NCBI GenBank assembly: GCA_016710645.1
Contig: JADJVI010000056.1
Span: 1,388-65,387 of the forward strand
Direction: 5' to 3'
DNA length: 64,000 nucleotides
DNA from: Actinomycetales bacterium
GTDB lineage: Bacteria; Actinomycetota; Actinomycetes; Actinomycetales; Dermatophilaceae
Shown: one piece after another, positions 37,147-64,000 of the stretch
How positions within the stretch are numbered: position 1 is the first letter of the stretch
Layout of the letters: each line of letters opens with the position of its first letter
The notes under the pieces: generated by a model
Databases searched by the model: none
What the model saw: the letters and a program-made list of their open reading frames with translations, nothing else
Told to the model about the DNA's origin: nothing
Made by a program: the position numbers and the translations under genes

Positions 37147-37229
37147 CCGAAAGCCAACTCGCGCAGCTCACTGAGCACTGCTGGATCCCTCAAAGCTGGC
37201 TCACAGTCAGCGCCGCGAACCTCGAAGGC

Positions 37230-39338
37230 ATGAACGAGATGGCCCTACGCGCACGCGGCACGAGCGACATGACTGACCTGCCGACGATCACCCAGAGTCC
37301 CGCCGCGCGGAAGGCGAGGGGCACGGCATACCGGCTCTGGCGTGGGTCGGAAAGCGACCCGAGCTGGGCGCGCCCCGCCTTGCTCGGCCTGCTCGCCCTC
37401 ACGGCGGTGTTCTACCTCTGGAACCTCACCGCGAGCGGCTACGCCAACTCGTTCTATTCGGCTGCGGCACAGGCCGGTTCGGAGTCCTGGAAGGCCTTCT
37501 TCTATGGCAGCTCCGACGCCGCCAACTCGATCACGGTCGACAAGCCCCCGGCCTCGCTGTGGTTCATGGCCCTGTCGGTGCGCGTCTTCGGGCTCAACAG
37601 CTTCGCGATCCTCTTCCCCGAGGTGCTCATGGGGGTCGCCACGGTCGGCGTTCTCTACGCCACCGTCAAGCGCCAATTCGGCGCTGTCGCAGGCCTGCTC
37701 GCGGGCGGCATCCTTGCCCTGACCCCCATCGCCGTGCTGATGTTCCGCTTCAACAACCCCGACGCGCTGCTCGTGCTGGCCATGACGCTCGCGGCCTGGG
37801 CCACGATGCGATCCATCGAGAAGGCCTCGCCCAAGTGGTTCGCCTTCGTCGGCGTCTTCATCGGGTTGGCCTTCCTCACCAAGACCCTGCAGGCCTTCCT
37901 CGTCGTGCCCGGCTTCGCCCTCGCCTACCTGGTGGCCGCCAATGTCCCTCTGCTGCAACGGATCTGGCACACCATTCTCGGTGGGCTCGCCATCGTCGCG
38001 TCGGCGGGATGGTGGGTCGCCATCATCGAGCTCGTCCCGGCGAGCGCCCGCCCCTACATCGGCGGCTCGCAGACCAACTCCTTCCTTGAGCTGACCTTCG
38101 GCTATAACGGCCTGGGCCGGATCAACGGCAACGAGACCGGCTCGGTCGGCGGCGGCGCTCCAGGGGGCAACACCGGCGGCAACTGGGGCGCAACTGGCCT
38201 GCTGCGCATGTTCAACGCCGACAACGGCGGTCAGATCTCGTGGCTCATGCCGACCGCCATCATCCTGCTACTGGCCGGCCTGGTGTGGCGGGCCCGGCGC
38301 CCGCGCACGGATGCCCGCCGCGCGGCATACCTCGCCTGGGGTTCGTGGTTCGTCGTGACGACGCTGACCTTCTCGCTCATGGCCGGCATCTACCACGCCT
38401 ACTACACGATCGCCCTCGCGCCCGCCATCGCCGCCCTCGTCGCGATGGGCGCGGTCGAGGCGTGGGAGCGCCGCGACCATCTCGTGGCCCGGGTCGTCCT
38501 GGCGGTCGCGATGCTGGCCGCCACCGGCTGGAGCTTCGTGCTCCTGTCCCGCACTGTCTCGTGGAACGGCTGGCTGCGCGTCCTCGTGCTCGCGCTCGGC
38601 CTCACCGCCACCGTCGGCCTCGTCGTGCTGGACAAGGTCCACACCAAGGCCATCCCCGCGATCGTCGGACTCGCGCTCACCGCCGGCCTGCTCGGCCCCG
38701 CGGCATACAGCGTCCAGACTGTCTCGACCGGGCACATGGGCTCGATCGTCACCGCGGGTCCCGCGGTCGCCGGACAAGGCGGCCCGGGCGGTATGCCGGG
38801 TGGTCCCGGCGGTGCCGCCGGTGGACAACTGCCCGGTATGCCGGGTGGCACGGGCACGACGCGCGGCGGCGCTGCGGGTGCTCCGGGTGCTCCGGGTGCT
38901 CCGGGAGCTGGCGGTGCCGGTGGCATGGGTGGCTTGCTCAACGCCGACCTGCCGACGACGGCCGTCGTCCAGGCGCTGACCAAGGACAGCTCGTCCTACA
39001 CCTGGGTGGCTGCCGCGGTCGGGTCCCAGCGGGCCGCCGGTTTGCAGCTGGGGACGGGGTTGCCGGTCATGGCCATCGGTGGGTTCAACGGTTCTGACCC
39101 CTCACCCACCCTGGCGCAGTTCCAGGCCTATGTCGCCGAAGGCAAGATTCACTACTTCGCCTCTGGTGGTGGCTTCGGTGGCCAGCAGGGCGGCAGCCAG
39201 AGCTCCTCGGCCATTGCCAGCTGGGTGCAGCAGAACTTCACTGCCGTGACCATCGGCGGATCGACCTTCTATGACCTCACCGTGCCACTTGGGAGCACCG
39301 GGACGACCAGCGCGACGGCGACCACGGGCACGGTCTGA
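37230..39338 (+). CDS. GT39/GT83-type (ArnT/PMT-like) polyprenyl-phosphate-sugar-dependent glycosyltransferase
   Basis: 702 aa, polytopic. YANSFYSAAAQAGSESWKAFFYGSSDAANSITVDKPPASLW matches the ArnT-like first loop. Includes a Gly/Pro-rich insert GGPGGMPGGPGG...GAPGAPGAPGAGG. An alternative start is at 37269. Confidence 0.85.
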   Translation: MNEMALRARGTSDMTDLPTITQSPAARKARGTAYRLWRGSESDPSWARPALLGLLALTAVFYLWNLTASGYANSFYSAAAQAGSESWKAFFYGSSDAANSITVDKPPASLWFMALSVRVFGLNSFAILFPEVLMGVATVGVLYATVKRQFGAVAGLLAGGILALTPIAVLMFRFNNPDALLVLAMTLAAWATMRSIEKASPKWFAFVGVFIGLAFLTKTLQAFLVVPGFALAYLVAANVPLLQRIWHTILGGLAIVASAGWWVAIIELVPASARPYIGGSQTNSFLELTFGYNGLGRINGNETGSVGGGAPGGNTGGNWGATGLLRMFNADNGGQISWLMPTAIILLLAGLVWRARRPRTDARRAAYLAWGSWFVVTTLTFSLMAGIYHAYYTIALAPAIAALVAMGAVEAWERRDHLVARVVLAVAMLAATGWSFVLLSRTVSWNGWLRVLVLALGLTATVGLVVLDKVHTKAIPAIVGLALTAGLLGPAAYSVQTVSTGHMGSIVTAGPAVAGQGGPGGMPGGPGGAAGGQLPGMPGGTGTTRGGAAGAPGAPGAPGAGGAGGMGGLLNADLPTTAVVQALTKDSSSYTWVAAAVGSQRAAGLQLGTGLPVMAIGGFNGSDPSPTLAQFQAYVAEGKIHYFASGGGFGGQQGGSQSSSAIASWVQQNFTAVTIGGSTFYDLTVPLGSTGTTSATATTGTV

Positions 39339-39339
39339 C

Positions 39340-39957
39340 ATGGACGCCACGACCACTGTTTTGCCTACCGTCGACTCGCCCGCCGTGACCGCCCGACGCA
39401 CGCTGGGCGGCCAGGTGGCCCGGTTCGCCGTCGTGGGTGTCCTGTGCACCGGGGTCCACCTGGGTCTTTTCACCGTGTTTCACTCCTGGTGGGACTCGCA
39501 ACTGGCCAATGTCGCCGCGTTGGTGCTGGCGACCGTGGTCAACACCACGCTCAACAAGAGCTGGACCTTCCGCGGGGCAGGTGCCGGCAACTGGGTCCGC
39601 CAACAACTCCAAGCCCTCGGAGTCTTCCTGCTGACCTGGGCGGCGACGAGTGGGGGGTTGGCCCTGTTGGAAACCGCATGGCCCACTGCTCCCCTGGTGG
39701 TCAAGGTCCTCGCGCTCGCCGCGTCGACCGCAGTCTCGACGGTCGTGCGGTTCGTGGCGATGCGGCGCTGGATCTTCGCGGGCGGGCATGACCCGGGACC
39801 TCTGCCGGGCCGACCAATCCGGACGGGCGCCCGAACAAACAACGACGGTGGTGACCTCCCTGAGGAGATCACCACCGTCGATGCGCGGGCGGAGGCGGCG
39901 GGATTTGAACCCGCGAGGGAGGTTAATCCCAACCCACTTAGCAGGCGGGCGCACTAG
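39340..39957 (+). CDS. GtrA-family membrane protein (long unconserved C-terminal tail overlaps the antisense tRNA-Ser)
   Basis: ORF 39271..39957 trimmed to MDATTTV (the ATG is 1 nt after the GT39 stop). RFAVVGVLCTGVHLGLF...NKSWTF...RFVAMRRWIF is the GtrA signature. The last ~60 aa are probably read-through. Confidence 0.7.
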   Translation: MDATTTVLPTVDSPAVTARRTLGGQVARFAVVGVLCTGVHLGLFTVFHSWWDSQLANVAALVLATVVNTTLNKSWTFRGAGAGNWVRQQLQALGVFLLTWAATSGGLALLETAWPTAPLVVKVLALAASTAVSTVVRFVAMRRWIFAGGHDPGPLPGRPIRTGARTNNDGGDLPEEITTVDARAEAAGFEPAREVNPNPLSRRAH

Positions 39958-39976
39958 GCCACTATGCGACGCCTCC
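39890..39976 (-). tRNA. tRNA-Ser (anticodon GCT)
   Basis: The reverse complement GGAGGCGTCGCATAGTGGCCTAGTGCGCCCGCCTGCTAAGTGGGTTGGGATTAACCTCCCTCGCGGGTTCAAATCCCGCCGCCTCCG has a long variable arm and anticodon loop CTGCTAA. Confidence 0.85.
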
Positions 39977-40199
39977 CCACCCAGCCGGACCACCGCGGGC
40001 GCGAGCGCACACGGCATACCGAAGGGGCCGTCACAGGCTACCGGGGGAGCCGCGGCCGGACCAAAACCTGGTCACCGACCAGAACGGACGAATTTGCCGG
40101 ACGGGCAACCGCAGTGGCTCGCACGGCGTCTATCCGGATGAGGTGCAGAATGTTCACGACACCATCTGCCCGATTCGACGCCAAGGGAGAGCCCTCGCC

Positions 40200-41741
40200 A
40201 TGACCAGCGATCCTCGGCGACCCCTCCCCGACGGGGTGCGGGCCCGGCGCCGGGTCGCGGCCGCCCGAATGGCGCGCCGGTCGGCCACGCTCACCATCCT
40301 CAGCACGCTCTTCCCAGGGTCCGGGCTCACCCAGACGCGCTTCTACAAGCTCGGCTGGCTCGTCGTGACGCTGGCAGCAGGCACCGTCGCGGCCCTGGCC
40401 GCGGTTGTCTTCGCGAAGGGGCCGACTGCTGCCGCGCTGGCCGTGGCCGTGCGACCCGGCGCGCTGCTCATCGCGGCTGGCCTCATCGCGGTCGCCGGGG
40501 TGCTGTGGGTGTTGACCATCTGGCTCACCCACCGCGGCACCATGGACGACCGGCTCGACCGGGTCCAGCGGGTCGGCCTGCGGGCTCTTTCGGCATTGCT
40601 GTGTGTCGTCATCGCCGTGCCGATGGCCACGGCCGTGCGCTACTCGCTGATCCAGCGCGATGTCATCGGCACGCTGTTCGGGCAATCCGGCGACGTCGGC
40701 ACCGATGGCGAGGCGGCCCGTCCGAGCGGCGGCGCGGATCCCTGGGCGGACGTGCCTCGGGTCAACGTGCTGCTCATCGGGTCCGACGCCGGTGACGACC
40801 GCATCGGCGTGCGCACCGACTCGATGATGATCGCCTCGATCGAACCCAAGACCGGTCAGACGATCCTCTTTTCCTTCCCCCGCAACATGCAGAACGTGCC
40901 CTTCCCCATGAGCAACCCGCTCTACAAGATCTATCCCAAGGGCTACACCTGCGGGAGCGAGTGCTTGCTCAACGCGGTCTGGCACGAAGCCGAGGTCAAC
41001 CACCCCGAGCTCTTCAAGGGCATCAAGCAGCCGGGTCTCTACACGATCAAGGGCGTGCTCCAGGAAATCTCGGGGCTGCGCATCGACTACACGACGACAG
41101 TTGACCTCAAGGGCTTCGAGGCCCTGGTCAACGCGATGGGCGGGGTCGTCATCAATGTCAAGGAGAAGTTGCCGATCGGCGGGCACGTCAACGCCGCCGG
41201 CAACATCTACGGCGTCGACTCGTGGATCCAGCCGGGGGTGCAGCTACTCGACGGCTTCCACGCGCTCTGGTATGCCCGCTCGCGCATCACCAGCGACGAC
41301 TTCGGTCGGATGCGCCGGCAGCGGTGTCTGGTGGGCAAGCTCATCGGCCAGGTCAACGTCGGGACGATGCTGAGCAAGTACCCCGCGCTGGCCCAAGTCG
41401 CCAAGGACAACGTCCAGATGGACATCCCCCCGACGGACCTGCCCGCCTGGGCCGAGCTCGTCAACCGCGTCAAGGGCGCGACGATCAGCTCGCTGGCCTT
41501 CACTCCCGACAACATCAACCCCGGCAACCCCAACTTCGTGGCGATCCGGCGCATGGTCCGGGAGGCTATCGACCCGAGCCTCGTCGTGCCGCCGTCGACC
41601 ACGTCGGTGCCGTCGACCACGAGCAAGACCCCGACCAAGAAGCCCACGGCGACCAAGACTCCCACCAGCACCAAGTCGCCGAGCAGCACGACGAGCACGC
41701 CGCCACCGAGCGCCCCGGTGGACCTGGAAGAGGCCTGCTGA
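40200..41741 (+). CDS. LytR-CpsA-Psr (LCP) family cell-wall glycopolymer ligase with a Ser/Thr/Pro-rich tail
   Basis: ORF 40143..41741 trimmed to MTSDPRRPL. VNVLLIGSDAGDDRIGVRTDSMMIASI and ALWYARSR are LCP motifs. Confidence 0.85.
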   Translation: MTSDPRRPLPDGVRARRRVAAARMARRSATLTILSTLFPGSGLTQTRFYKLGWLVVTLAAGTVAALAAVVFAKGPTAAALAVAVRPGALLIAAGLIAVAGVLWVLTIWLTHRGTMDDRLDRVQRVGLRALSALLCVVIAVPMATAVRYSLIQRDVIGTLFGQSGDVGTDGEAARPSGGADPWADVPRVNVLLIGSDAGDDRIGVRTDSMMIASIEPKTGQTILFSFPRNMQNVPFPMSNPLYKIYPKGYTCGSECLLNAVWHEAEVNHPELFKGIKQPGLYTIKGVLQEISGLRIDYTTTVDLKGFEALVNAMGGVVINVKEKLPIGGHVNAAGNIYGVDSWIQPGVQLLDGFHALWYARSRITSDDFGRMRRQRCLVGKLIGQVNVGTMLSKYPALAQVAKDNVQMDIPPTDLPAWAELVNRVKGATISSLAFTPDNINPGNPNFVAIRRMVREAIDPSLVVPPSTTSVPSTTSKTPTKKPTATKTPTSTKSPSSTTSTPPPSAPVDLEEAC

Positions 41742-41901
41742 CGCAGGCAGGGCCGTCGGGGGCGTGCCCGAGTGCTTCGAGTATGCCCCCGGGTAAGCCC
41801 CTGAATGCTTCGGGCATCCCCCTGTATGCCGTGAGCCCCCCGTGCCGCAGCACGAGGGGCTCACGAGCGCTGACAGAGTCAGCGCATGTCGTTGTCGACG
41901 A

Positions 41902-42105
41902 TCAGAGCGGACGAACCTGGTCAGCCTGCGGGCCCTTGGGGCCCTGGGTGACCTCGAACTCGACGCGCTGTGCCTCATCGAGGGTCCGGTAGCCCTGGGT
42001 CTGGATGGCGGAGTAGTGGACGAAGACGTCCGGCCCGCCACCATCCTGGGCGATGAAGCCGAAGCCCTTCTCAGCGTTGAACCACTTGACGGTTCCCTGT
42101 GCCAT
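41902..42105 (-). CDS. cspA: cold-shock protein (CspA family)
   Basis: [35 protein letters not shown], 67 aa. The upstream part of track ORF 41902..42285 is 5' UTR. Confidence 0.95.
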
Positions 42106-42327
42106 GGGGATAACTCTCTCTATCTGGACACTGGAGCCCGCACCTCGCGAACCCCGGTGCTGCCGCCTACCCCACAACCGGGTCGTACCCGAGTCTTTGG
42201 GAACTCCGGCCACGTCCTGGAATGGCGTGGCTACGAGGTCCGTCCTGCGAGGAACTGCAACTGCAACCGAGGCCGACGCTAGCACGTCGTGTGAAAAGCG
42301 CCACCCCTTCTTCGGGTCATTTTCGGA

Positions 42328-43338
42328 CTACTCGCGAGTAGCCTGCCCGGTCCGGACCGAGCGCGCCCGATCGACTGCGGATGCGTCCACATCGTGACTG
42401 TGCGGTCCCAACCCGCGGACAGCCACCTGCTGCGGCCGGTCGCCACGGATCGAGGCCACCATGTCGACCACGCGCCGGGTGGCCCGCACGTCATGGGCCC
42501 GGAAGACGGTGGCGCCCAGCCATGCGGCGATCGCGGTCGCGGCCAGACTCCCCTCCAGGCGCTCCTCGGTCGGCAGGTCGAGCGTCTCGCCGACGAAGTC
42601 CTTACGCGAAAGCGCCTGCAAGACAGGGAAACCCAACGCGGTCACGGCGGCGCTATGCCGCAGCACCCGCAGCGAGTGGGCGGTCGTCTTGCCGAAGTCC
42701 AGGGTGGGGTCGACGAGAACTCGCTCGGACGGCATACCGAGGGCGGTTGCTCGTGCGGCTCCCGAGGCAAGGGTCGCCACCACATCGCGCACGACGTCCA
42801 GCGCGTCGGGTCCATAGGTGACGTCGACCGGGTCGGTGCGCGGCGGGCGGCCACCGGTGTGCGAGACGACGTAGCCCGCTCCGGCCTCGACCGCCGCCGG
42901 CAGCAGCTCGGCGTCGTAGCCGGCCCAGGTGTCGTTGACCAGGTCGATGCGGGCGCCGGCGGCCATCGCCGCGCGCAGCACCTCGGCGCGCCAGGTGTCC
43001 AGGCTCAGCAACAGCTCGGGGTATGCCGTTCGCGCCCGCACGAGGAAGGGCACCACCCGCTCGATCTCTTCCTGCGCGCCGACGGGGTCACCCTCGGACC
43101 CAGCCCGCACGCCGCCGACGTCGACGATGTCGGCACCGAGGGCGACGGCATTGTCGAGGGCGCGCAGAGCGCTGTCGAGATCGGCGTGCCGGTTGCCGGC
43201 GAAGAAGGAGTCGGGGGTGCGGTTGATGATGGCCATGACGGCCGGGCGAGAGGCGTCGAAGGTCTGACCGCGCAAGACGAGGGCAGCAGGCTCAGACAGG
43301 ACGATTTGCGGGATATCGTGCTCTTGAGCGTCGATCAT
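42328..43338 (-). CDS. folP: dihydropteroate synthase family protein (FolP-like)
   Basis: AIINRTPDSFF, DIVDVGG, SLDTW, VNDTWAG, DPTLDFGKT and SRKDF blocks of the pterin-binding domain. Confidence 0.85.
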   Translation of the reverse strand: MIDAQEHDIPQIVLSEPAALVLRGQTFDASRPAVMAIINRTPDSFFAGNRHADLDSALRALDNAVALGADIVDVGGVRAGSEGDPVGAQEEIERVVPFLVRARTAYPELLLSLDTWRAEVLRAAMAAGARIDLVNDTWAGYDAELLPAAVEAGAGYVVSHTGGRPPRTDPVDVTYGPDALDVVRDVVATLASGAARATALGMPSERVLVDPTLDFGKTTAHSLRVLRHSAAVTALGFPVLQALSRKDFVGETLDLPTEERLEGSLAATAIAAWLGATVFRAHDVRATRRVVDMVASIRGDRPQQVAVRGLGPHSHDVDASAVDRARSVRTGQATRE

Positions 43339-43641
43339 GGCCTCATCCTCGGGTCAACGGCACAGGATTTGAAGTTTGTACGTAGATCGAACATAATAGG
43401 AGGCGAGTCCTCAGCCTGAGGGCGCGCCAATCCACACGAAACTGAGTTGCCTCATCATGCCTAGCTGGATCGTCCTGTTCCCGCTCTTCGGAAAGAGCTC
43501 GAAGCACGGCGCTTCGTACTACCACCACCGCGACCAGGTCCACTTCCGGACCTTCTGACCGGCCCCGCGGCTCGTCGACCCGGGGGGATCTGGGTCCGAA
43601 CCGCACCAGCCTTCGACGCCACCGGCAGCATGCCGGTGGCG

Positions 43642-44520
43642 TCACTCTATTTCCGAGCGGCCCAGGGTTCCTGGCCGGGTTCCCGGGTTCCCAGTTTCCC
43701 GGGGTGCCTGGATCTGGGGCCCGGATGTTCCGCTCTCCGGCGCGCGGCCACTCGCCCACCGATAGTGCCGCACCAAAAGGTAGGCCGCACCAGCCGTCGC
43801 AAGGTGCCAGACGGCGTGCCCCTGCAGGAGCGAGCCCGGGTCACACCAGAGGCCGCGCTCGTCAGCCAGCCACACGGCATACCCGAGCGTGAGCAGTCCG
43901 ACCGCAGCGCGCAGCGAAGGAGAGCCGGGCGCTCGGCGCGCCTCCAAGACGATCCCCGGGAGCAGCACGACGGCGAAGAGCCACCGGCGCGTGCCGGGAA
44001 GGGCCCACTGAATCGCCGCGAGGGTGGCCAGCGAGGTGAGTGCCAGCGGCAGGGTCCGGTGCGCGAACGGGGAGCCTCGGCAGCTGCCGACGAGAAGCAG
44101 GACGGCGATGAGGTACATGCCCTGCACGTCGAGCAGCTGCCCGGCGAAGGTGAGCCCGCCGTGGTAGGCCAGGCTCCCCGCGCCGACCGCGATCGTGGCC
44201 AGGGCGGCAGCGCCAGCGAGGGCGCGCTCGGGTCGGGTGCGGTTGATCGCGCGGACGGATCGGTATGCCGCCGCCCCGGCAACGAGGAAGGCGAGGTTGC
44301 TCAACGCATTGGCAGGTTGGCGCAGCAATCCAGATCCGACGGCCTCGCAGAAGCACCGCGGCTGGGCACCTTGGTTGGTGGTCGGATCGAGGCAGGTCGC
44401 CGGCCGAATGTCGAGGGCCCCAGGACGTGCGAACTCCACGGCCGCCAGCGCGGTCAACGCGAGGGCGAGCACCCCCATCACGTATGCCGTGCGGCTCACG
44501 TCAGCTGGTCGGCTGGTCAT
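43642..44520 (-). CDS. ceramidase-like (CREST superfamily) 7-TM putative hydrolase
   Basis: ORF 43642..44991 trimmed to MTSRPADV. ANALSNLAF, SLAYHG, LDVQGMY and GHAVWHL carry the conserved Asn/His pattern. Confidence 0.55.
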   Translation of the reverse strand: MTSRPADVSRTAYVMGVLALALTALAAVEFARPGALDIRPATCLDPTTNQGAQPRCFCEAVGSGLLRQPANALSNLAFLVAGAAAYRSVRAINRTRPERALAGAAALATIAVGAGSLAYHGGLTFAGQLLDVQGMYLIAVLLLVGSCRGSPFAHRTLPLALTSLATLAAIQWALPGTRRWLFAVVLLPGIVLEARRAPGSPSLRAAVGLLTLGYAVWLADERGLWCDPGSLLQGHAVWHLATAGAAYLLVRHYRWASGRAPESGTSGPQIQAPRETGNPGTRPGTLGRSEIE

Positions 44521-53832: not shown

Positions 53833-55525
53833 ATGACGACGCTCGCTCTCGACCCGCAACCACTCGGCGGTATGCCGTGTGGTGGTCGGTTGGGTGGCGC
53901 GTCGGAGGGGCCGTCGGTGGCGGGGGTTTCGACCACGGTGGTGCATGCGACCTGCGATCAGATCCTGGCCCGACTGTCGTCTCCTGAGGCCGGTGTGGTC
54001 GTGTCGAGCGTGGACGTGCAGGAAGTGGATCGGCTCGCTCGTCGGGTGGAGGCGGTGCGGTTGGCGTTGGTCGCTGCAGCTGATCGGCAGCAGGTGCATC
54101 GGCGGTGTGGGCATTCCTCGACGTCGGCGTGGGTGGCCAGCGCGACGCGTTCTGGGGGTGCTGCGGCGGCTCGGGATGTGGCATTGGCGACGGCGTTGGC
54201 TGATGGGTTGGACCGCACCCGGGTGGCGTTCGAGGCTGGTGAGGTCTCTCGCTCGAACGCGGGGATCATCGCCAGGACCATGGGCAAGTTGCCCGAGACG
54301 ACCACGGTGGTGGATCGGGAGCGGGTCGAGTCGGCGTTGGTGCGGGATGCTCGCCGGTTGGACCCGGGCCGGTTGGATCGGGCGGCGAAGCTGGCGTTGG
54401 CTGCGGCGGAGAAGTCGGCGGCCGAGGTGGCCGATCACCTTGAGCAACAACTGGTGGATGAGGAGCGTCGGGCCTACCGGTTGGCGACGGTGACCATGCA
54501 GGACCTGGGGGATGGCACGACGAAGTTGGCGGCGACGTTGCCGACGCCAGCCGCGAAGATGTTGGGCAAGGTGTTGCAGTCGATGACCGCGCCTCGGCGT
54601 GACCATCTGCGCAAGGCTGCCGAGAAGGCGTTGGCGGACGGGCAAGCCCCTGCCGGCTGCCTGGACGACGGCTCCGTGGCTGCTGACTTGTTGAGCGCCA
54701 CGGGCACGCACGAGCACCCGTCGTTCGGTGCCGGTTCGCATGGCACGTCTGGCACTGGTGCCCACCCGCAGTTCGGCGCCGGCGTGAGGGGCACGGCCGG
54801 CGCGAAGGGGCGCATGGCAGCCGACGGTCGGGCGCCGTCCGGCACAAGCGCGATGCCTGCCAGCGGCGCCAGCGGACACCGGATCGAGGGTCGGAACGCG
54901 GACTGGGCCGACATTGACTGGGCTCACCGTCGTGGCCGGGCGTTGACCGAGTTGATCGAGCACCTAGACACGGAGAAGCTGACCGGGAAGGTCGCCTCCA
55001 CCGTCATCATCACCATGACCGCTGAGCAAGTGATGGGCGCCGCGAAAGCCGCCAAACTCCAGCAGACCATCCACGAGGCGACCGGGACGCTGATCGACAT
55101 GGCTCCGAGTTCCGGGGCCGCGACCACCGACACCGGGGTGTTGATCTCCACGAGTGCCGCGCGGCGGATCGCCTGCAATGCCGGGATCCTGCCGGTCGTG
55201 TTGGGCGGACCCGGACACGTCCTGGACGTCGGCCGACAAGAACGGTTCTTCACCGAGCACCAACGGACAGCCCTGGCGACGATCTACGAAACCTGCGCGG
55301 CAGAAGACTGCGACCGACCCTACGCATGGTCCGAGTTGCATCACGAGGACCCGTGGTCCAAGGGCGGATTGACCGACCTCGACCGAGCCGATCCCGCTGT
55401 GCGGCTACCACCACCGCAAGATCCACGACCCCGCCTACCACCACGAGATCACCCGAGACGGAGACACGGACGGGCGAGGTCAGGGGCATGGGGCGAAGAG
55501 CGTCCACTTCCAGCTGCGCACCTAG
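53833..55525 (+). pseudogene. DUF222 + HNH endonuclease (13E12-repeat-like family), frameshifted inside the HNH motif
   Basis: ORF 53833..55629 reads ...ELHHEDPWSKGGLTDLDRA, then goes out of frame. Shifting one frame at ~55387-55390 gives IPLCGYHHRKIHDPAYHHEITRDG...VHFQLRT*, the canonical end of this family. Confidence 0.75.
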
Positions 55526-55614
55526 CCACCCAAGGGCGAAGCCCGGCCACTCAGGGGCGGAGACCGTCCACTTCCAGCTGCGCACCTAGCCACCCACGGG
55601 CGAAGTCTGGCCAC
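55501..55614. repeat. 50-bp unit repeated with a 64-bp period at the 3' end of the HNH pseudogene
   Basis: CGTCCACTTCCAGCTGCGCACCTAGCCACCCA(A/C)GGGCGAAG(CC/TC)(C/T)GGCCAC at 55501-55550 and 55565-55614. Confidence 0.7.
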
Positions 55615-55866
55615 CCGGCTTCCGACTAGGCAGAACGTGCACCCCGACTCAAGTTCCGCCTAGCGGCGTGGTCCATGGCACGGCATACCTCGTCCCCTGC
55701 GGCGAGGTAGCGATAGGGGCTGCTACGCGACCCTGCTCACAGCCGAATTCGGCACCTCGCGGGGCACGCGGGCGAGGAACCAGCCGCCGGGCGGCGGCCA
55801 TTCGGCCGGAGCGGCCGAAAATAGCCCTCGACGTGGACCAGGGCGGCGTCGACGCCGAGCTCAGGC
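55611..55866. repeat. diverged (~80% by eye) direct copy of the 56880-57160 segment, including a dead copy of the reductase gene 3' end
   Basis: Shared strings CCGGCTTCCG(AC/GT)TAGGCAGAACGTGC and GGGCGGCGGCCATTCGGCCGGAGCGGCCG…GTAGCCCTCGACGTGGACCAGG. The two copies bracket the GNAT pseudogene. Confidence 0.65.
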
Positions 55867-55867
55867 G

Positions 55868-56813
55868 CTAGTCCGGTCGGCGGAAATCCGTGACGTCGGC
55901 CAGCTTCGTGAAGCCCGCCGACAGATAGGCCGCGATACCGCCGACGTTGCTGGTCGGAGTGCAGACGACAACGCTGGATGCGCCCATCTTCTGCAGCTCA
56001 GCGGCCGCGGCAACAGCGATCGCGCACCCGTACCCGCGACCGCGAAATGCGCGGTGCGTGCCGAGGGGTTCGATCAGGCCCGGTCGTCCCGAGCCCGCAG
56101 ACCACACCGTGGTCGCCGCCACAGCCTGGTCGTCGGTGTCGTAGGCGACAGGACAGCGACCGCTCCGGTAGGCAGGCGAGGCGGCCAGCGCATGCCACCG
56201 CTTCACCGTGAACGTCGAGTTCGGGAAGGCGGCACGCTGGACAGCCACTCGATCCCGGACGACCTCATCGCGGACGTGCTGTGCATCGACCGTCTCGATG
56301 CGCACCCCACAGTCCTGCACGGGTGCGGCGAGGTCGCGGGAGAGCGGAGTCCACGACTCGTCGGCGATCCACCCCCGACGGCTCAAGAGGCCACGCACCG
56401 CCGGCCCGTACCTGACCTCCGCGACCCCACGGCCTCTCGGCAAGACTCCGCGGTCAGAGTCGGACAGGTCGTCGACGAACCGCCTAGCGAAGAACTCGTC
56501 ATCCCCGACCTCGGGAGAGATGGCCCATCCGGATCAGGCCCTCGGCACCATCCACCATCCCGACGGCCACCAGCCGCCCATCCGACCGCCCATCTAGCCG
56601 ACCATCCGACAGCCCATCCAGCCGACCATCCAGCCGCCCATCGCTCCGCCACAGCCACAGGCCGTCGACCACCTGCTGGGCCCCGAATCGCCACAGCCAC
56701 CCGAGATCGCCCGGATGCACATGCACCGGGAGGCCGTCATGCTGCCAGGACCCGACGACATCGACGACTTCCTCCAGCATCGCAACGGTCGCCTGCTGCA
56801 CGGTGAACCCCAT
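55868..56813 (-). pseudogene. two-domain GNAT N-acetyltransferase, frameshifted between domains; carries a DGRL-type tetrapeptide tandem repeat
   Basis: ORF 56499..57101 (from MGFTVQQATV at 56813) and ORF 55868..56443 join if one base is removed near 56520-56528 (…LIRM(G/A)ISPEVGDDEFFARRFVDD…PRGRGVAEV…). C-terminal acetyl-CoA motif RGRGYGCAIAVAAA. Repeat RLDGRLDGLSDGRLDGRSDG at ~56575-56640. Confidence 0.7.
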
Positions 56814-56991
56814 GGGACCAGACAACCCCAACCCACACCGACTACGCACGCAGTTTGAGGGCGAGGCAGCGAGAGAAGCTCTGCCATCCGGCTTCCGGTT
56901 AGGCAGAACGTGCGCCCAGACGCACGTTGTGCCTAGCCGTACGTGCACCCAGCGGCCCAGGAGCGACACGGAGCGCCGCGCAGGCGAGGAA

Positions 56992-57030
56992 CAGCCGGGG
57001 TATGCCGTGCGGCACGGCATACCCCGGCTG
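56992..57030 (-). terminator. near-perfect 39-bp palindrome from an inverted motif pair, 3' of the reductase gene
   Basis: CAGCCGGGGTATGCCGTGC-g-GCACGGCATACCCCGGCTG. Confidence 0.55.
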
Positions 57031-57070
57031 TTGCAGCGTCCTGAGCGGGTCGGCAGGCGACCCGCCTCGA

Positions 57071-58123
57071 TCAGGGAACCAGACGCCCGGGCGGCGGCCA
57101 TTCGGCCGGAGCGGCCGGGAAGTAGCCCTCGACGTGGACCAGGTCGGGGTCGGCGCCGAGTTCGAGGGCCCGGGCCTTGCAGGCCTCGACGAAGTCGGGG
57201 TTACCGGCGATGAAGACGCTGTGGCCGGCCAGTGACGGGAAGACCTGGTCGAGCATCGCGGGGATGCGGCCAGACTTGGCGCCCTCGGGGGCCTCGCCAC
57301 CGGTGTAGGTCGGGACGAAGGTGAACTTGCGGTGCTTCTTCTCCCACCAGGCCATGAGGCCACGGTCGAAGACGTCGGCCTGGGTGCGCGCCGAGAAGAT
57401 CAGCGTGACGCCGAACTTGAAGCCACGCCGCAGCGCGCCATCAGTGAGGCCGAGGATGGGGGCCAGGCCCGAGCCCGAGGCCAGGCACACGACAGGCGTC
57501 TCGACGGAGGGGTCTCCGACGAAGGTGCCGTAGGGACCGGAGAGCAGCACCTGGTCTCCGACACTGAGCTTGTCGTGCACCCAGCCGCTCGTGGCCCCGC
57601 CCGCGACCTTGGTGATCAACAGGTGGATCTCGCCGTCCGGACGGGGAGCGTTGGCGATCGAGTAGGAGCGCGGCGGCGCATCGGCCGCGGCGTTGCCGAA
57701 CATGACGTATTGACCCGGCCAGTAGCGCAGGTTCTCACCAAGCGGCCGCAACTGCACCTCGAGCATCGAGGGGGTCCGCCGGATGAGGTCGGTGACGACG
57801 AAGGGGACGTTCTCGCGCGGTGGGAAGAGCTTCTGCAGCGCGTCGACGGTGCCGAACTCGATGTCGAGGGTGTTGGTCAGCGGCTTGGCCATGCACATGA
57901 GGCCATAGCCCTCGGCGCGGTCGGCCTGGCTGAGCGCCATGTCCAGGACCATGCCCTGGTCGAAGGAGCCGTCGAGGACCTTGGTCTTGCATTCGCCACA
58001 GGCACCCGCGCGGCAGTTGTTCGGCATGATGTAGCCGGCCTTTTCCAAGGCGGTGAGCACCGTGTCGCCGGCTTCGCAGGGAACCTCATGGCCGGAGGGC
58101 TGGAGGCGGATCGTCGCTGTCAT
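57071..58123 (-). CDS. 2Fe-2S ferredoxin / FAD-NAD(P) oxidoreductase (FNR-type reductase component of an oxygenase)
   Basis: N-terminal plant-type ferredoxin CRAGACGECKTKV...LMCMA. FNR motifs RSYSIAN, LLSGPYG, CLASGSGLAP. Confidence 0.85.
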   Translation of the reverse strand: MTATIRLQPSGHEVPCEAGDTVLTALEKAGYIMPNNCRAGACGECKTKVLDGSFDQGMVLDMALSQADRAEGYGLMCMAKPLTNTLDIEFGTVDALQKLFPPRENVPFVVTDLIRRTPSMLEVQLRPLGENLRYWPGQYVMFGNAAADAPPRSYSIANAPRPDGEIHLLITKVAGGATSGWVHDKLSVGDQVLLSGPYGTFVGDPSVETPVVCLASGSGLAPILGLTDGALRRGFKFGVTLIFSARTQADVFDRGLMAWWEKKHRKFTFVPTYTGGEAPEGAKSGRIPAMLDQVFPSLAGHSVFIAGNPDFVEACKARALELGADPDLVHVEGYFPAAPAEWPPPGRLVP

Positions 58124-58389: not shown

Positions 58390-58451
58390 GCCTTGTCGAT
58401 CAGAAGCGATCAGCGAGGATCAGAAGCAATCACGCGCCAACGAGCAGTGGA

Positions 58452-59476
58452 TCAGAACACCGGGATGATGTCGTCCATGTCGATGTCGCTGATCTCTTCG
58501 CCGGTGATACCGACCTCGGGGATCGCGGGGAAGGGGATGTTGTAGCGGTCGAGCACGCCCTTGAGGTTGAGCATGGCCGAGCGCCAGTTTTCCTTCTTCT
58601 GCTCGTACTCGGGAATGAAGAAGCCAGCCGCACGTGCGATGGCCTCGCCCTCGCGCTGAGCCGAGATGAAGTCCTCGGGGAGGTCCCAGAACTCCATCGG
58701 CGGCTCGAAGAGCACGGCCGAGAGGAACAGGTAGCCGGCGCGGATCTGCTTGGTGATGAGGCTGCGCTCGGACACGTCCAGCTTCGGGTAGTCGCGCCCA
58801 TGAGCGACATGCAGATCGCCATGTGACGGCCCTCGTCGCGGCCGATGTTGCGGAAGGCGGCCTGGTACACAGGCTCCTTCGCGCCGGCGGCCATCTGGTG
58901 GAAGATCGTCGCAGCAGCGATCTCGCCCATAAGGAAGGACGAGAAGAGGATGGCCAGCGAGTAGCGCGGGACAGCCTTCTTGTAGCCACTCCAGTAGCGG
59001 CCGCCGTTGAAGTACAGCCACTTGGTGTTCTTCTGGAGGCGCTTGCCGAGCTCGGTCTTGGGCTCGTAGGTGAGCGGGTCCGGGTGCTCGAGCAACTTGG
59101 TGATGGACAAGCCACACATCTGCTCGTGCATCTGCTCGTCACGGGTCACCGAGAAGAAGCACCGGCGGACGGCGTCCTCTTCGTGGACCTCGTAGGTCTT
59201 GATGAGAGCCTCGGCGAACACCGGCGGGGCGGATGCGTCGAAGACCGACAGCAGCGTCCACCAGTACGCGATCGCCTCGCGCTGCTCCCACGTGTAGGAG
59301 CTCGGGTCAAAGGTGTCCCAGGGGAGCTTCAGCGGGTCCCACTGGTCACGTTGGGAAGAGGCCCAGATCTCTTCCATCTTGGCTGTCTCCCGGTGCCAGC
59401 TCAACGGGTAAACGTTGGGCTGCTCGGTCTCCGGCGGCATCTCCATGCTTCCTGCGAAGCGCTCTTTGCTGCTCAT
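58452..59476 (-). pseudogene. ferritin-like diiron oxygenase, -1 frameshift after the second EXXH motif
   Basis: ORF 58430..59476 carries RDEQMHEQ and RDEGRHMAI, then turns into Ser/Arg/Pro noise. ORF 58452..59117 supplies the plausible C-terminus DYPKLDVSERSLITKQIRAGYLFLSAVLFEPP…DIIPVF. The junction is at ~58790-58800. Confidence 0.7.
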
Positions 59477-59628
59477 AGGCCCGAGAGTAGATGTCGCAAC
59501 CTAGATTGTCTAGGTCTTGACTACCTGGGTGCTCGGCCTCACACTGACCGATCGGTCGGGAAAAGGTGCGACCGACTGAATCACCCTTGAGGTGCCCTCC
59601 GAAGGGGTCTACCCAGAGCCGCTCGGGG

Positions 59629-60045
59629 CTACTCGGTGCGACCGCGCAACAGCCGCCGCATGAGCTCGACGAACTGCTCCAGGTCGGGTCCCAGCCGCGC
59701 GAAGAACGCGGTCTCGACATCGTTCTCCCGCCCGTATGCCGCCGCGAGACGCTCGCCGGTGGCGGTGAGGCGCACGGTCACCAGTCGCCGGTCGGCCGAT
59801 TCGCGGTGTCGCTCGACCAGGCCGTCGCGTTCGAGGGTGTTGAGGACGCTCGACACGGCCGCTCGCGACAGGCCCGAGTAGCGGGCGATCTCCCGCGGCT
59901 CCATCTCACCAGCGACCCATACGCAAAACATCACCCGAAAACCTGCCATGCTCCACCCGGCCTCGCGGTGCACCTGGGATTCGAGCCGGTGGACCAACAT
60001 CGTCGACAGGCGCACGAGGTTGAAGGATGCGCGCAGGGCGAGCAA
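59629..60045 (-). CDS. MarR-family transcriptional regulator
   Basis: wHTH REIARYSGLSRAAVSSVLNTLERDGLVERHRESADRRLVTVRLT. Confidence 0.85.
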   Translation of the reverse strand: MLALRASFNLVRLSTMLVHRLESQVHREAGWSMAGFRVMFCVWVAGEMEPREIARYSGLSRAAVSSVLNTLERDGLVERHRESADRRLVTVRLTATGERLAAAYGRENDVETAFFARLGPDLEQFVELMRRLLRGRTE

Positions 60046-60295
60046 GTCTGCGTCAGGGTGGGTCGTGGCGACTTGCTGGGCTGCGGCGGACTCGAACCCG
60101 TCCGACGAGCCCCGGGCTGATCATCACAACTCGCATGATGTCACCTTGACGATCCCTGTCAGGGCTCACGTCCTGACTTGGGCTCGGACTGTCCTCGTTC
60201 CGCACGCATTCCGGTATGCCGTCAGGCCGGAGGTGGCGACCGGAGGCCGAGGCGAAGGCATGGAGAGGTCGAGAGTCGGGAGGCGGGAGGCGGGG

Positions 60296-60348
60296 TGGGA
60301 CGTCGGGGAGGGACGTCGCCGGTGGGACGTCGCGGGTGGGACGTCGGG
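60296..60348. promoter_or_regulatory. four tandem GGGACGTCG units (GACGTC cores at 60299, 60312, 60326, 60340; 13-14-bp spacing)
   Basis: Read directly in the MarR / VOC-like intergenic region. Confidence 0.4.
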
Positions 60349-60457
60349 GGTGGGGAGAGGCGAGATGGGAGGGGTGGCGAGTGGGCGGCATAAGGCGGGC
60401 GTGAGCCACGTCACGTCCGCGGCGCGGCGCGATCCCACCGCCCCCAGGAGCCGCGTG

Positions 60458-60994
60458 ATGACCCAGACCTACCCGGTGTCGACCTGCCTGTGGTTCGACA
60501 CCGAGGCCGAGACCGCAGCCCGGCTCTACACCAGCCTGGTGCCCGACAGCGAGATCGGGCAGATCAGTCACTACGGCTCGGAAAACGAACACGGTGAGAC
60601 CGGTTCGGTCCTACAGGTCAGAATTCCGGCCTGGCACACAGCAATTCGTCGCCCTCAACGGCGGACCGATCTTCAGGCACTCGCCCGCGGCGTCGATCCA
60701 GGCTTCTGCCCCGACCAGGTGGAAGTGGACCGGCTCTGGTACGGGCTGCTCGAAGGCGGCGGCGAAGAGTCGCAATGTGGCTGGCTCACCGACCGGTTCG
60801 GCCTGTCGTGGCAGATCATCCCGACCCGACTGGGCGAACTCGCCGGCGACCCGGACCCCGAGCGCGCCTCCCGGGTCATCGCCGCGATGCTGCAGATGCG
60901 CAAGCTCGACATCGCCGCGCTCGAAGCCGCCGCCGACGCTCCGGCCACTGCCCCAGCCAATGCCCCGACCGACGCCCCGACCACGCAGGCGTGA
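60458..60994 (+). pseudogene. PhnB/VOC-like (3-demethylubiquinone-9 methyltransferase-domain family) gene with a compensating +1/-1 frameshift pair
   Basis: ORF 59948..60994 holds MTQTYPVSTCLWFDTEAE…GSVLQV and …VEVDRLWYGLLEGGGEESQCGWLTDRFGLSWQIIP. The conserved middle EFRPGTQQFVALNGGPIFRHSPAASIQ is in the frame of ORF 60594..61850. Switch points are ~60620 and ~60700. Confidence 0.7.
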
Positions 60995-61005
60995 ATCGAG
61001 CCCTC

Positions 61006-61549
61006 ATGCGACCAGTGACCGCAGCCCTGTTCAGCTCGATCGACGGCGCCGTCGAATCCCCCACCACTTCCAGTTTGACCACTTCGACGCTGACACGGGC
61101 GGGCTGATGACCCAGGCCCTCAGCGGTGCCGACGCGGTCGTCATGGGCCGACGCACCTACGACGAGTGGTCGCAGTACTGGCCCGCCAACACCGACGACG
61201 CCGGCGACTTCATCAATCCGATCCGTAAGTACGTCGCGTCGAGCACGCTCACCGACCCACTCGCGTGGCAGAACTCGACCATCATCCCCGGCGACGCCGT
61301 CGACTCGTCCGCGAACTCAAGCAGACCGAGGGTGCCGGCATCGTCGTCACCGGCTCGATCTCGCTGGTGCGCCAGCTGCTCCTGGCTGGGGTCCTCGACC
61401 GGCTCACCTCATGGTCCACCCGGTCGTGGCCGGCGCAGGGCTGCGGCACCTGTTCGACCCGGACGAGAAGACCATCCGCCTCGAGCTTCGTCGACCACAC
61501 CGTCACGGTCCCGGGCAACGCGATCCTCACCTACGCATTGCGCTCCTGA
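61006..61549 (+). pseudogene. RibD_C / dihydrofolate-reductase-like family gene broken by about four frameshifts
   Basis: Family-typical segments sit in different track frames: MRPVTAALFSSIDGAVESP (60775 ORF), HHFQFDHFD…RRTYDEWSQYWP…KYVASSTLTDPLAWQNSTII (60594 ORF), LVRELKQTEGAGIVVTGSISLVRQLL (61265 ORF), MVHPVVAGAGLRHLFDPDEKTIRLEL (61126 ORF), VDHTVTVPGNAILTYALRS (61265 ORF). Confidence 0.7.
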
Positions 61550-61565
61550 GCGGCCTGGCCTGCAG

Positions 61566-61600
61566 CCGCCTGTATGCCGTGTGACACGGCATACAGGCGG
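61566..61600 (+). terminator. 17-bp-arm palindrome from an inverted (variant) motif pair
   Basis: CCGCCTGTATGCCGTGT-g-ACACGGCATACAGGCGG, 17 nt after the stop at 61549. Confidence 0.5.
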
Positions 61601-61658
61601 GGTCAAGGACCGCTCCGCCTTCCAGGAGCAAGCGCTTACCGGCAAGCAGGATCCGATC

Positions 61659-63944
61659 ATGAGCGCCCTGCAGATCACCGCCATTGCGCTGTGCTTCACC
61701 ATCCCGCTGTTGGGGTGGGCGTTGCTCTTCCGGCAGGCGTTCCGCTTCTATCGGCTGTTCCAGACCGGGGCACCCGACACGAGCCCGCGACCAGCCCACC
61801 ACGCGCGCACTGACGGTGCTGCTGCGAGTTCCTCGGGCACACCCGGATGAAGCAGCCAGTGGGTGTCGGTGGCGCACTGGTTCACCGCATTGGGGTTCCT
61901 ATCCTCTTCGCCACCCTGGTCAACGCGTTCTTCCAGCTCATCTGGGCTGACTTCCGGCTGCCGGTCGTCGGGCACTTCCCGCCCTTCGAGTGGCTCATCG
62001 AGTTGTTCGCGGTGACCGGGTTTATCGGCATCGTCTTCCTCATGCTGGTCCGCCAGAAGGAACACCCGCGCTCCTCCGAGGGTGACCGCGGCGCCGCCGC
62101 AGCCGATTCTTCGGATCGACGTGGTGGCAGGCCTATTACGTCGAGATCACCATCCTCGTCGTCATGGTGTGCATCCTGTCGTTGCGCACCAGGAGGCCGC
62201 GCTCATCGCGCGCATCGAGCCCGACACCAACATCGCCCTGCACTTCCCCGACCGGCTGGGCGCGTGGCATCTGGGGTGGCCTGGTCCGAGCAGTGGCTGC
62301 GCGAGTCGATCTGTCGTCGCGGCGACCAAGATCCTGGTGAGCTTCGCGTGGATGATCACGTCCCGCTCACTTCCGACGATGGGCGTGGCGTGGCACCGTT
62401 TCTCGCGTTCGTCAACATCTTCTTCAAGCGTCACGCCGACGGGCGCACCAGCCTCGGCGCGGGCAGCCGATGATGGTCGGCGGCGCGCCTATCGACCTCG
62501 AGCAGATCGAAGATCTCACGAGGACGCCGCCCTCGCGGGTGCAGGCCGAGCACTTCACCTGGAAGGGCTTGGCTCGACTTCACCACGTGCACTGCGCGTG
62601 GCCGCTGCCAGGCGCAGTGCCTGGCGTGGAACACCGACAAGCCGTCCTCACCCAAGCTGCTCGTCGTGACGCTGCGCGACTACGCCCACGCCAAGGCCCC
62701 TACCTCATGGCCACCGAGGGCGACCGCGCCGACCTGCCCGCGCACACCCTCAAACTCGCCGATGCGCCGCTGATCGGTGAGCCGACGGCATACGACGTCA
62801 GCCACCCGCTGACGGCATACGACGCCCTGGGCACTGACGGGGTCATCCACGAGACGCGCTCGGTCGTGCACGACGTGCAGCGCCTGCGTCGAGCAGTGCC
62901 CGGTCGACATCGAGCACGTCGACGCGATCGTCGACATGCGCCGCTATCAGAAACCTCATCGCCAGCGCTTTCCGCGTCGAGCTCGGCGGCCTGTTCAAGG
63001 ACCTTGAGAAGAACTCCAACCCCTGGGGCCATGCCCGGCGGATGCGCATGGACTGGGCCAAGGGCCTGGCGTTCGACGTGCCGGTCGTCGGCGACGACAT
63101 CGAGGACCTCGCCGGGAGGTCGACTACCTCTTCTGGGTCGGCTGCGCAGGCGCCTTTGAGGACCGCGCCAAGCGCACCTCCCGCGCGGTCGCCGAACTCC
63201 TGCACACCGCCGGGGTCACGTATGCCGTGCTCGGAGACGGCGAGGCCTGCACTGGTGACTCTGCGCGCCGGGCCGGCAACGAGTTCCTCTTCCAGATGCT
63301 CGCGCAGCAGAACGTCGAGGTGCTCAAGGAGGTCGGCGCGACCAAGATCGTCGTCACCTGTGCGCACTGCTTCAACACTCTCAAGAACGAATACCCGCAG
63401 CTGGGTGGCCACTACGAGGTGCTGCACCACACCCAGCTGCTCAACCGGTTGGATCCGAGAGGGCCGGCTCACCTGTGTCCCGCCCCGGCGAGTCCGGCGG
63501 CACTAAGGACGCCTCCACGGCCCCGACGGTCACCTATCACGACCCGTGTTACCTCGGCCGGCACAACCACGTTCACGCGCCGCGCGAGCTGCTCGGCGCC
63601 CTGCCCGGGGTCTCGCTGTCGGAGATGCCGCGACACGGCGAGAAGTCGTTCTGCTGCGGCGCAGGTGGCGCGCGGATGTGGATGGAGGAGCGCCTGGGCA
63701 CCTGAATCAACGTCAACCGGGCCACTGAGGCGGTCGGGACGGGAGCGGCCCGTATCGCGGTTGGTTGCCCATTCTGTAAGGTCGCGCTCAGCGACGGCGT
63801 GAACCAACGCTCGTCGAGGAGTCCAAGGTCGCCGAAGGTGCGGTCGAGGTCGTCGATGTCGCCCAGATGCTGCTCGCCGCGGTGCGCCGCGGCCAGGAGC
63901 CGGGTGCGGCGACGACCGGAAGCGCCAGCACCGGTTCCGGCTAG
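61659..63944 (+). pseudogene. membrane-bound (Fe-S)-binding oxidoreductase of the heterodisulfide-reductase-related / Rv0338c-like family, with >=10 frame disruptions and one in-frame TGA
   Basis: Conserved blocks are spread over all three + frames of track ORFs 60594, 61684, 61847, 62082, 62470, 63042, 63227 and 63475. Examples: [84 protein letters not shown]. The TGA at 63703-63705 replaces an expected Arg/Lys codon with the frame conserved on both sides. Confidence 0.7.
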
Positions 63945-64000
63945 GGACCCGTCGCGTCGGTTCGGGCCGAGACCTCGGACGAGGTGCCCAGGAGGGGGTC

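Follow-up and report, generated by a model that had tools for sequence, protein, structure and literature searches.

Clustered frame disruptions near an actinobacterial contig end very probably stem from low-depth long-read consensus errors

Three disrupted genes near the end of a contig

The window analysed here is a stretch of 64,000 nucleotides (C56:1388-65387) from a contig of 68580 bp, designated C56, which belongs to a draft genome of metagenome type in 61 contigs (91% complete, 3.47 Mb). Toward its right-hand end lie three consecutive genes whose reading frames are repeatedly broken (Table 1). A first-pass annotation, made from the sequence alone, had drawn attention to these genes and had treated the end of the window as a possible contig end. 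The contig in fact extends 3.2 kb past the window, and its tip falls at window-equivalent position 67193.

Orthologues in related genomes indicate what the genes would encode when whole. The G007 orthologue of the PhnB-like gene matches PF06983 with E = 2.5e-42 (144.5 bits against a gathering score of 24), and the C56 copy aligns by tblastn with the G006 orthologue over residues 1-169. The G007 orthologue of the RibD_C gene matches PF01872 with E = 5.8e-17 (62.6 bits against a gathering score of 24.1). In the G007 orthologue of the third gene, PF02754 (CCG) occurs in two stretches (E = 4.4e-34, 116.9 bits), while Fer4_8, Fer4_9 and Fer4_10 score slightly under their gathering scores. In the intact 767-aa G015 orthologue the N-terminal 250 aa are hydrophobic and were read, by eye rather than with a predictor, as a membrane part. 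Two CCG domains and a dicluster are thus found behind a membrane part, suggesting the architecture of a CCG-domain/4Fe-4S dicluster oxidoreductase (HdrD/GlpC-related). The first-pass annotation called the protein Rv0338c-like, after M. tuberculosis Rv0338c, of which it may be an orthologue. In NCBIfam, no equivalog reached its cut-off for any of the three proteins; for the Fe-S oxidoreductase, TfrB, LdhH, GlpC and other matches lay far under their cut-offs, and no equivalog could be assigned.

Table 1. Features at the right-hand end of the window (window coordinates; gene names denote the intact form).
Feature	Position	Strand	Remarks
Error-rich zone	59561..64000	.	Private indels and substitutions at ~3% of positions, ~10% in the last kb; runs on to window-equivalent 67193
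MarR-family regulator gene	59629..60120	-	Pfam PF01047, E = 1.6e-13; single frame kept; at onset of the noisy zone
PhnB-like gene (PF06983, 3-dmu-9_3-mt / glyoxalase-fold)	60458..60994	+	Compensating +1 (60620, extra A) and -1 (60702, missing T)
RibD_C-domain reductase-like gene	61006..61548	+	-1 at 61058, -3 at 61200, -1 at 61304, -1 at 61406, +1 at 61487
Membrane-anchored Fe-S oxidoreductase gene (4Fe-4S dicluster and two CCG domains)	61660..63944	+	~767 aa when intact
In-frame TGA	63703..63705	+	One private C>T in an Arg codon (CGA in G007:C7 and C25, CGG in G015)

Changes private to this assembly

G007 was dropped as a clean reference. When its two copies of the segment, on contigs C7 and C25, are compared along 11 kb, 155 gap openings separate them, and by tblastn their Fe-S genes carry frameshifts of their own, one in C7 and two in C25. 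Because these copies are noisy, we replaced G007 with a polarised four-way alignment of this assembly, G007:C7, G007:C25 and G015 over window 60357-64058 (3.7 kb), and used the protein of the complete genome G006 as a distant intact yardstick for frame comparison. The G007 assembly is noisy close to its own contig ends too; its contigs C7 and C17 overlap with 98.4% identity and 21 gap openings.

In the four-way alignment this assembly carried 40 private indels, of which 26 were deletions and 14 insertions; each of the other sequences had 0-4 unique indel events, and none of the 40 was shared by G007:C7, G007:C25 or G015. Private substitutions numbered 71, whereas the G007 stem had 4 and its two copies had 7 and 5. 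The indel-to-substitution ratio on this assembly's branch is 0.56. The spectrum of private change held 32 transitions and 18 transversions beside the indels, C>T and T>C being the commonest changes.

Gene by gene, the disruptions already suspected were present or exceeded. The compensating pair in the PhnB-like gene was confirmed, with both indels private. About four frame switches had been proposed for the RibD_C gene, and we found 4 frameshifts together with a 3-nt deletion. The "at least ten" disruptions put down for the Fe-S oxidoreductase gene proved an understatement: it bears 27 private events, 26 of them frameshifting and one a 3-nt deletion, plus the in-frame TGA. Comparison with relatives had been among the checks that the first-pass annotation suggested. 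By tblastn with intact orthologues, including those of G006 and G015 for the PhnB-like gene, all three genes in G015 each occupy one frame, whereas the C56 copies are spread over all three frames; the RibD_C matches alone fall in three frames in C56 and in one in G007 and G015.

The TGA does replace a basic residue, as had been noted. It had also been singled out as the one observation that is harder to put down to homopolymer errors. It is one of ~71 private substitutions, and 50 random coding substitutions would be expected to include ~1.4 nonsense changes; the codon needs no separate explanation.

Given the state of the G007 assembly, with its gap openings between C7 and C25 and between C7 and C17 and its one or two Fe-S frameshifts per copy, the errors might lie in the relatives, this assembly's sequence being the correct one. 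Yet three sequences from two genomes agree against this assembly at the 40 indel sites, and the state on which they agree yields open reading frames that match the G006 orthologue over 765 residues, which this assembly's state does not. On the strength of this agreement and the G006 match we rejected that explanation, which we consider extremely unlikely.

The indels themselves are mostly short and scattered. Single-base events make up 28 of the 40, and 18 of these 28 lie in runs of two bases or fewer. Whether the indels sit in homopolymers had been proposed as a check; only 5/40 fall in runs of five or more bases, and homopolymer miscalling was rejected as their main cause. That homopolymers are mostly spared suggests poor read support, not systematic homopolymer miscalling, as the cause.

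Private coding substitutions were distributed 15/19/16 over codon positions 1/2/3, as opposed to 23/12/118 on the G015 branch. This flat spectrum is also what neutral decay would produce, and it counts in favour of a genuine and recent pseudogenisation, in which this lineage lost the function of an accessory gene block that now decays under indel-biased mutation. The genes are indeed accessory, and a second Fe-S oxidoreductase gene, which the first-pass annotation had advised looking for, stands intact in a single frame at C28:6648-8837, with 49% aa identity across residues 2-747, and could relax selection on the copy in C56. The amount of change is nevertheless greater than could have accumulated neutrally after divergence from the nearest intact relative: 71 substitutions and 40 indels here, against 4 substitutions on the sister stem and 5-7 per G007 copy. 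By a rough estimate, a fully neutral branch would outpace a sister branch under selection only ~3-fold, which cannot explain the excess of private changes. The ratio of 0.56 is likewise too high, as bacterial pseudogenes would usually have an indel-to-substitution ratio several-fold lower.

The error-rich zone and contig ends genome-wide

The damage reaches well beyond the interval of 60458-63944 to which it had been assigned. In a pairwise comparison of C56 with G007:C7 over window 59000-65485, we counted 93 indel events, the first at 59561, and the onset of private errors can be placed at about 59561-60110. Relative to G007:C7, the MarR-family gene at this onset lacks three nucleotides at 59752, in frame, and carries an additional C at 60110. 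From there the zone continues to the contig tip, thus lying 0-7.6 kb from the end of C56. A three-way alignment, used to count assembly-private events per 500 bp up to the tip, gave 2-6 events before 60 kb, 6-26 at 60.0-65.5 kb and 35-53 at 66-67 kb, and was clean at 58.5-59.5 kb. An internal control (window 37166-43671) held no private single-base indels.

We also considered whether the noise begins at a chimeric join. G007:C25 matches C56 from window 56.6 kb, and identity between this assembly and G007 jumps at ~58.2 kb, but the noise sets in only from ~59.5-60.1 kb. As the two positions differ, a simple chimera does not account for the noise.

The whole genome was scanned for frameshift-like events with a codon-usage hidden Markov model (HMM). 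Because frames in the worst zones are too chopped for the model, which treats the final 3.7 kb of C56 as non-coding, it undercounts there and its counts are comparative only. Even so, the outermost 5 kb at either end of the contigs contain 197 of the 440 events, where 76 are expected (binomial p = 1e-40); density is 0.45 per kb in the terminal kb and drops to ~0.07-0.08 per kb more than 10 kb from an end. The same 5-kb margins hold 18 of the 20 densest clusters, and 26/122 contig ends have three or more events. The cluster in C56, which ties for the densest 3.5-kb cluster in the 3.47-Mb genome, is far beyond chance. An unrelated contig end (C11:1-4867) carries 22 private frameshifting indels, where G007 and G015 have 1 each. 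Besides the start of C11, noisy ends include the starts of C50 and C55 and the end of C18.

These patterns bear on both biological alternatives that the first-pass annotation had raised. Decay of a gene block does not lead one to expect damage to intergenic DNA and to every gene up to the tip of C56, graded toward that tip, nor the recurrence of the signature at C11 and at numerous other ends. Together with the surplus of private changes, this makes pseudogenisation very unlikely. Locally error-prone repair fared no better. A local hypermutation of the 7-kb segment, whether by error-prone repair, as the scar of a repaired break or through a diversity-generating process, would account for the local clustering and the mixed spectrum of changes, and for nothing else that we observed. 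The gradient runs to an assembly boundary, and we know of no mechanism that yields a monotonic gradient toward a mere boundary of this kind. The clusters moreover follow contig ends across the genome, contig ends being a property of the assembly and not of the chromosome, and the error-rich zone showed neither a template repeat nor a retroelement. We therefore assign hypermutation next to no probability.

Two observations run counter to an origin in assembly errors: the noisy zone is longer than many end effects, and the opposite end of C56 has no frameshift-like events by the codon-usage HMM. Discounting errors, the segment is ~99% identical to another species of the genus, whereas identity elsewhere on the contig is 83-90%. 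One could imagine that the disruptions are real, a very recently acquired segment being in the course of destruction by unusually indel-rich mutation and the contig ending there for unrelated reasons; we regard this as very improbable.

Origin of the disruptions and comparison with known systems

We consider it highly probable that the frame disruptions are low-depth long-read consensus errors near a contig end and not mutations of the organism. The case for errors rests on the privacy of the changes, the absence of a selection signal, the excess of indels, the gradient toward the end and the recurrence at other contig ends. Sequencing and assembly errors, rather than decay, almost certainly account for the breaks in the three genes, and in the real organism these are most likely intact, like the copies in relatives. 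Of the first option in the first-pass annotation, a low-coverage zone where a long-read contig ends is supported by the private changes, the gradient and the other contig ends, but homopolymer errors, named with it, are not the main cause.

The last ~7 kb of C56 appears to be backed by very few reads. Read depth would be low across the whole error-rich zone, and the error profile points to a platform that was probably long-read and nanopore-type. The consensus there would retain random deletions, insertions and substitutions like those of raw reads, denser toward the tip. As for why the contig breaks here, our guess is that a segment near-identical in two co-occurring species may act as an inter-genome repeat.

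There is no biological novelty in this locus; the errors are ordinary assembly errors. The three genes should be taken as intact accessory genes, and in this genome no pseudogene, frameshift or nonsense codon should be trusted that lies less than ~8 kb from a contig end. Gene calls, pseudogene counts and metabolic reconstructions are biased at contig ends here, and apparently in the G007 assembly as well.

Pseudogene blocks in genomes under reductive evolution resemble the end of C56 in that several neighbouring genes are disrupted by frameshifts and a nonsense codon, and in substitutions without codon-position bias. C56 differs from them in a branch-length excess that is too large, an indel-to-substitution ratio that is too high, a gradient to an assembly boundary, recurrence at unrelated contig ends and intact relatives.

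The closer likeness is to the errors of long-read assemblies and metagenome-assembled genomes. Long-read consensus retains frameshifting indels where coverage is insufficient (bioRxiv 10.1101/2021.08.23.457338), and the indel rate depends on coverage, bins under ~40-fold needing polishing (PMC9262707). As in C56, 1-2-nt indels split genes in such nanopore-type assemblies while amino-acid blocks stay readable, and the errors are private to one assembly, tied to read support and clustered where the consensus is weakest, at contig ends. Published accounts stress homopolymer indels in well-covered consensus, whereas the indels of C56 lie mostly outside homopolymers and come with many substitutions. 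In this respect the end of C56 looks like near-raw-read sequence, at a depth of perhaps roughly one to a few reads.

Broken frames near the end of contig C56

The frame disruption seen near one end of contig C56 was correctly observed, but we hold it very probable that the feature is not biological and is instead a contig end rich in errors, like many others in this draft assembly. The genome comprises 61 contigs (3.47 Mb, 69% G+C, 90.9% complete); C56 spans 68,580 bp, of which the window occupies 1388-65387. In a stop-to-stop ORF map, the coding signal jumps among the three plus-strand frames over 60.4-64 kb. The first-pass annotation had placed PhnB-like, RibD_C and Fe-S oxidoreductase genes here, and the families of the intact orthologues match these identities: a PF06983 protein, a PF01872 protein, and a membrane-anchored protein of ~767 aa that combines two CCG domains with a 4Fe-4S dicluster region. 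Just upstream of the PhnB-like gene, on the minus strand, is a MarR regulator gene. NCBIfam offered an equivalog-level name for none of these proteins. tblastn with intact proteins from the closest relative (G007) and a distant complete genome (G006) bore out the reported disruptions, as the copies in this assembly are split across three frames while all three genes read in one frame in a further relative, G015. The Fe-S gene has one break in G007 contig C7 and two in G007 contig C25.

As to a possible second intact Fe-S copy, raised at first pass, contig C28 does carry a full-length intact gene (49% aa identity over residues 2-747, one frame). It is a paralogue rather than a duplicate, and no second orthologue was found in this genome. 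A more distant paralogue lies less than 2 kb short of the C43 end and is spread over three frames by tblastn; this split is another contig-end error zone.

Features of the window and related loci (window coordinates unless a contig is named; indels are those unique to this assembly)
Feature	Coordinates	Strand	Observation
Internal control	37166-43671		
Stretch called non-coding by the codon HMM	55384-57112		1.7 kb
Minus-strand gene	58430-59500	-	single frame switch at 58794
G-rich tandem array	60290-60350		about four GGTGGGACGTCG-like units; intergenic, upstream of PhnB-like gene
PhnB-like gene	60458-60994	+	2 indels, +1 at 60620 compensated by -1 at 60702
RibD_C gene	61006-61548	+	5 indels, 4 frame-shifting
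Near-perfect palindrome (GCCTGTATGCCGTGTGACACGGCATACAGGC)	61562-61599		between RibD_C stop and Fe-S gene start; includes GGCATAC core
Fe-S oxidoreductase gene	61660-63944	+	27 indels, 26 frame-shifting; TGA at 63703
Flanking intergenic DNA			6 indels
End of C56	67193 (window-equivalent)		
Fe-S paralogue	C28:6648-8837		intact
Distant Fe-S paralogue	C43:191280-192814		split
Second contig end	C11:1-4867		

Private changes and their kind

We aligned window 60357-64058 with G007 C7, G007 C25 and, as outgroup, G015 contig C141, and counted the changes private to each branch. This assembly carried 71 private substitutions and 40 private indel events (26 deletions, 14 insertions), a density of (71 + 40)/3702, or ~3%. 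Against its 71 substitutions stand 4 on the G007 stem plus 7 in C7 and 5 in C25. Private indel events numbered 0-4 in each of C7, C25 and G015, and the outgroup branch of G015 held 178 substitutions. Genuine decay of the three genes is not supported by these relative rates, given that complete loss of selection raises the substitution rate only ~3-fold, as a rough estimate. The indel-to-substitution ratio of 0.56 also argues against decay, as it would be several-fold above the ratio usual in bacterial pseudogenes.

The indels unique to this assembly include both the compensating pair and the roughly four RibD_C frame switches read at first pass. Of the 28 single-base indels, 9 stand outside any run, 9 sit in 2-base runs and 5 in 3-base runs, and just 5 are in runs of at least 5 bases; this is not the profile of a well-covered nanopore consensus, with its systematic homopolymer errors. 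Private coding substitutions (32 transitions, 18 transversions) were spread flatly over codon positions 1/2/3 (15/19/16), and the G015 branch showed the usual third-position excess (23/12/118).

The in-frame TGA, described earlier as replacing a basic residue, is one private C>T change in an Arg codon (CGA in G007, CGG in G015). It had been singled out as harder to put down to homopolymer errors. Among all the single substitutions possible in these CDSs, 2.9% would create a stop, and 50 random substitutions with the observed spectrum would yield ~1.4 nonsense codons; one was seen, so the TGA needs no separate explanation.

Extent of the noisy zone and the relatedness step

The block 60458-63944 lies 3.2-6.7 kb short of the contig end, not at the very end. 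In a three-way alignment with C7 and C25, which began at window 56.6 kb and ran to the end of C56, events private to this assembly numbered 2-6 per 500 bp over 58.5-60.0 kb, 6-26 over 60.0-65.5 kb, and 22, 35 and 53 in the bins 65.5-66.0, 66.0-66.5 and 66.5-67.0 kb. Together with the earliest private indels (59561, 59584, 59752 and 60110), these counts indicate a noisy zone ~7 kb long that worsens toward the contig tip. The disruption is thus present within the bounds first proposed but overshoots them on both sides. Read support thinning toward a contig end would give such a rise in error density.

The frame switch in the minus-strand gene is probably an assembly error too, as the three-way alignment places one private deletion in the 58.5-59.0 kb bin. 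Several private indels lie inside the G-rich array, so its copy structure is unreliable. The palindrome is kept in G007 and G015 (97% minus-strand self-matches).

Over its main part, the window is 81-93% identical to C17, the main chromosome contig of G007. C7 continues C17 (the overlap at the C17 end is 98.4% identical, with 21 gap openings), and from ~58.3 kb on its identity to this assembly is ~99%, private errors discounted. C25 is near-identical from 56.6 kb (56596) to the contig end. This high identity indicates a segment of at least 9 kb that is near-identical in two species-level genomes. The step in relatedness could come from recent exchange between the species, from a mobile or conserved segment common to both, or from contigs that are chimeric or were mis-binned. 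If both organisms occur in the same samples, the segment would act as an inter-genome repeat, which, we conjecture, could account for the noisy ends of C56, C7 and C25. A simple chimeric join fails to explain the errors, because the identity step (56.6-58.3 kb) and the noise onset (59.5-60.1 kb) lie in different places. Within G007, 11 kb is duplicated between C7 and C25 (96.5% identity, 155 gap openings) and noise likewise gathers at contig ends, namely the starts of C25 and C7; that assembly shares the contig-end defect.

Contig ends across the assembly

We used 714 long ORFs to train a codon-usage model, decoded the whole genome with a 7-state Viterbi procedure, and counted each same-strand frame switch without a stop codon at the switch point. 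There were 440 such frameshift-like events, 197 of them no more than 5 kb from a contig end versus 76 expected from the 17.3% of bases in these regions (binomial p = 1e-40). Event density was 0.45 per kb within the terminal kb and dropped to 0.07-0.08 per kb at distances above 10 kb. At least three events occurred at 26 of 122 contig ends and at least five at 14, and 18 of the 20 densest 3.5-kb clusters lay no further than 5 kb from an end. The C56 cluster was joint densest, together with another where C55 begins. When aligned, the second contig end, on C11, held 22 private frameshifting indels versus one each in the main 1.07-Mb G007 contig and in G015. No private single-base indels appeared in the alignment of the internal control, where the few gaps not a multiple of three were 2-8 nt long and clustered at 39.4-40.1 kb and 41.8 kb, with one further 2-nt gap at 43.6 kb.

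The pattern of frame disruption is not specific to the C56 end. A gradient aimed at a contig boundary and repeated at unrelated boundaries is a property of the assembly and not of the chromosome, which further argues against decay of the three genes. We infer the sequencing platform only from the error profile. Frameshifting indels are known to persist in long-read consensus without adequate coverage (10.1101/2021.08.23.457338), and higher coverage lowers the indel rate, with bins below ~40-fold requiring polishing (PMC9262707).
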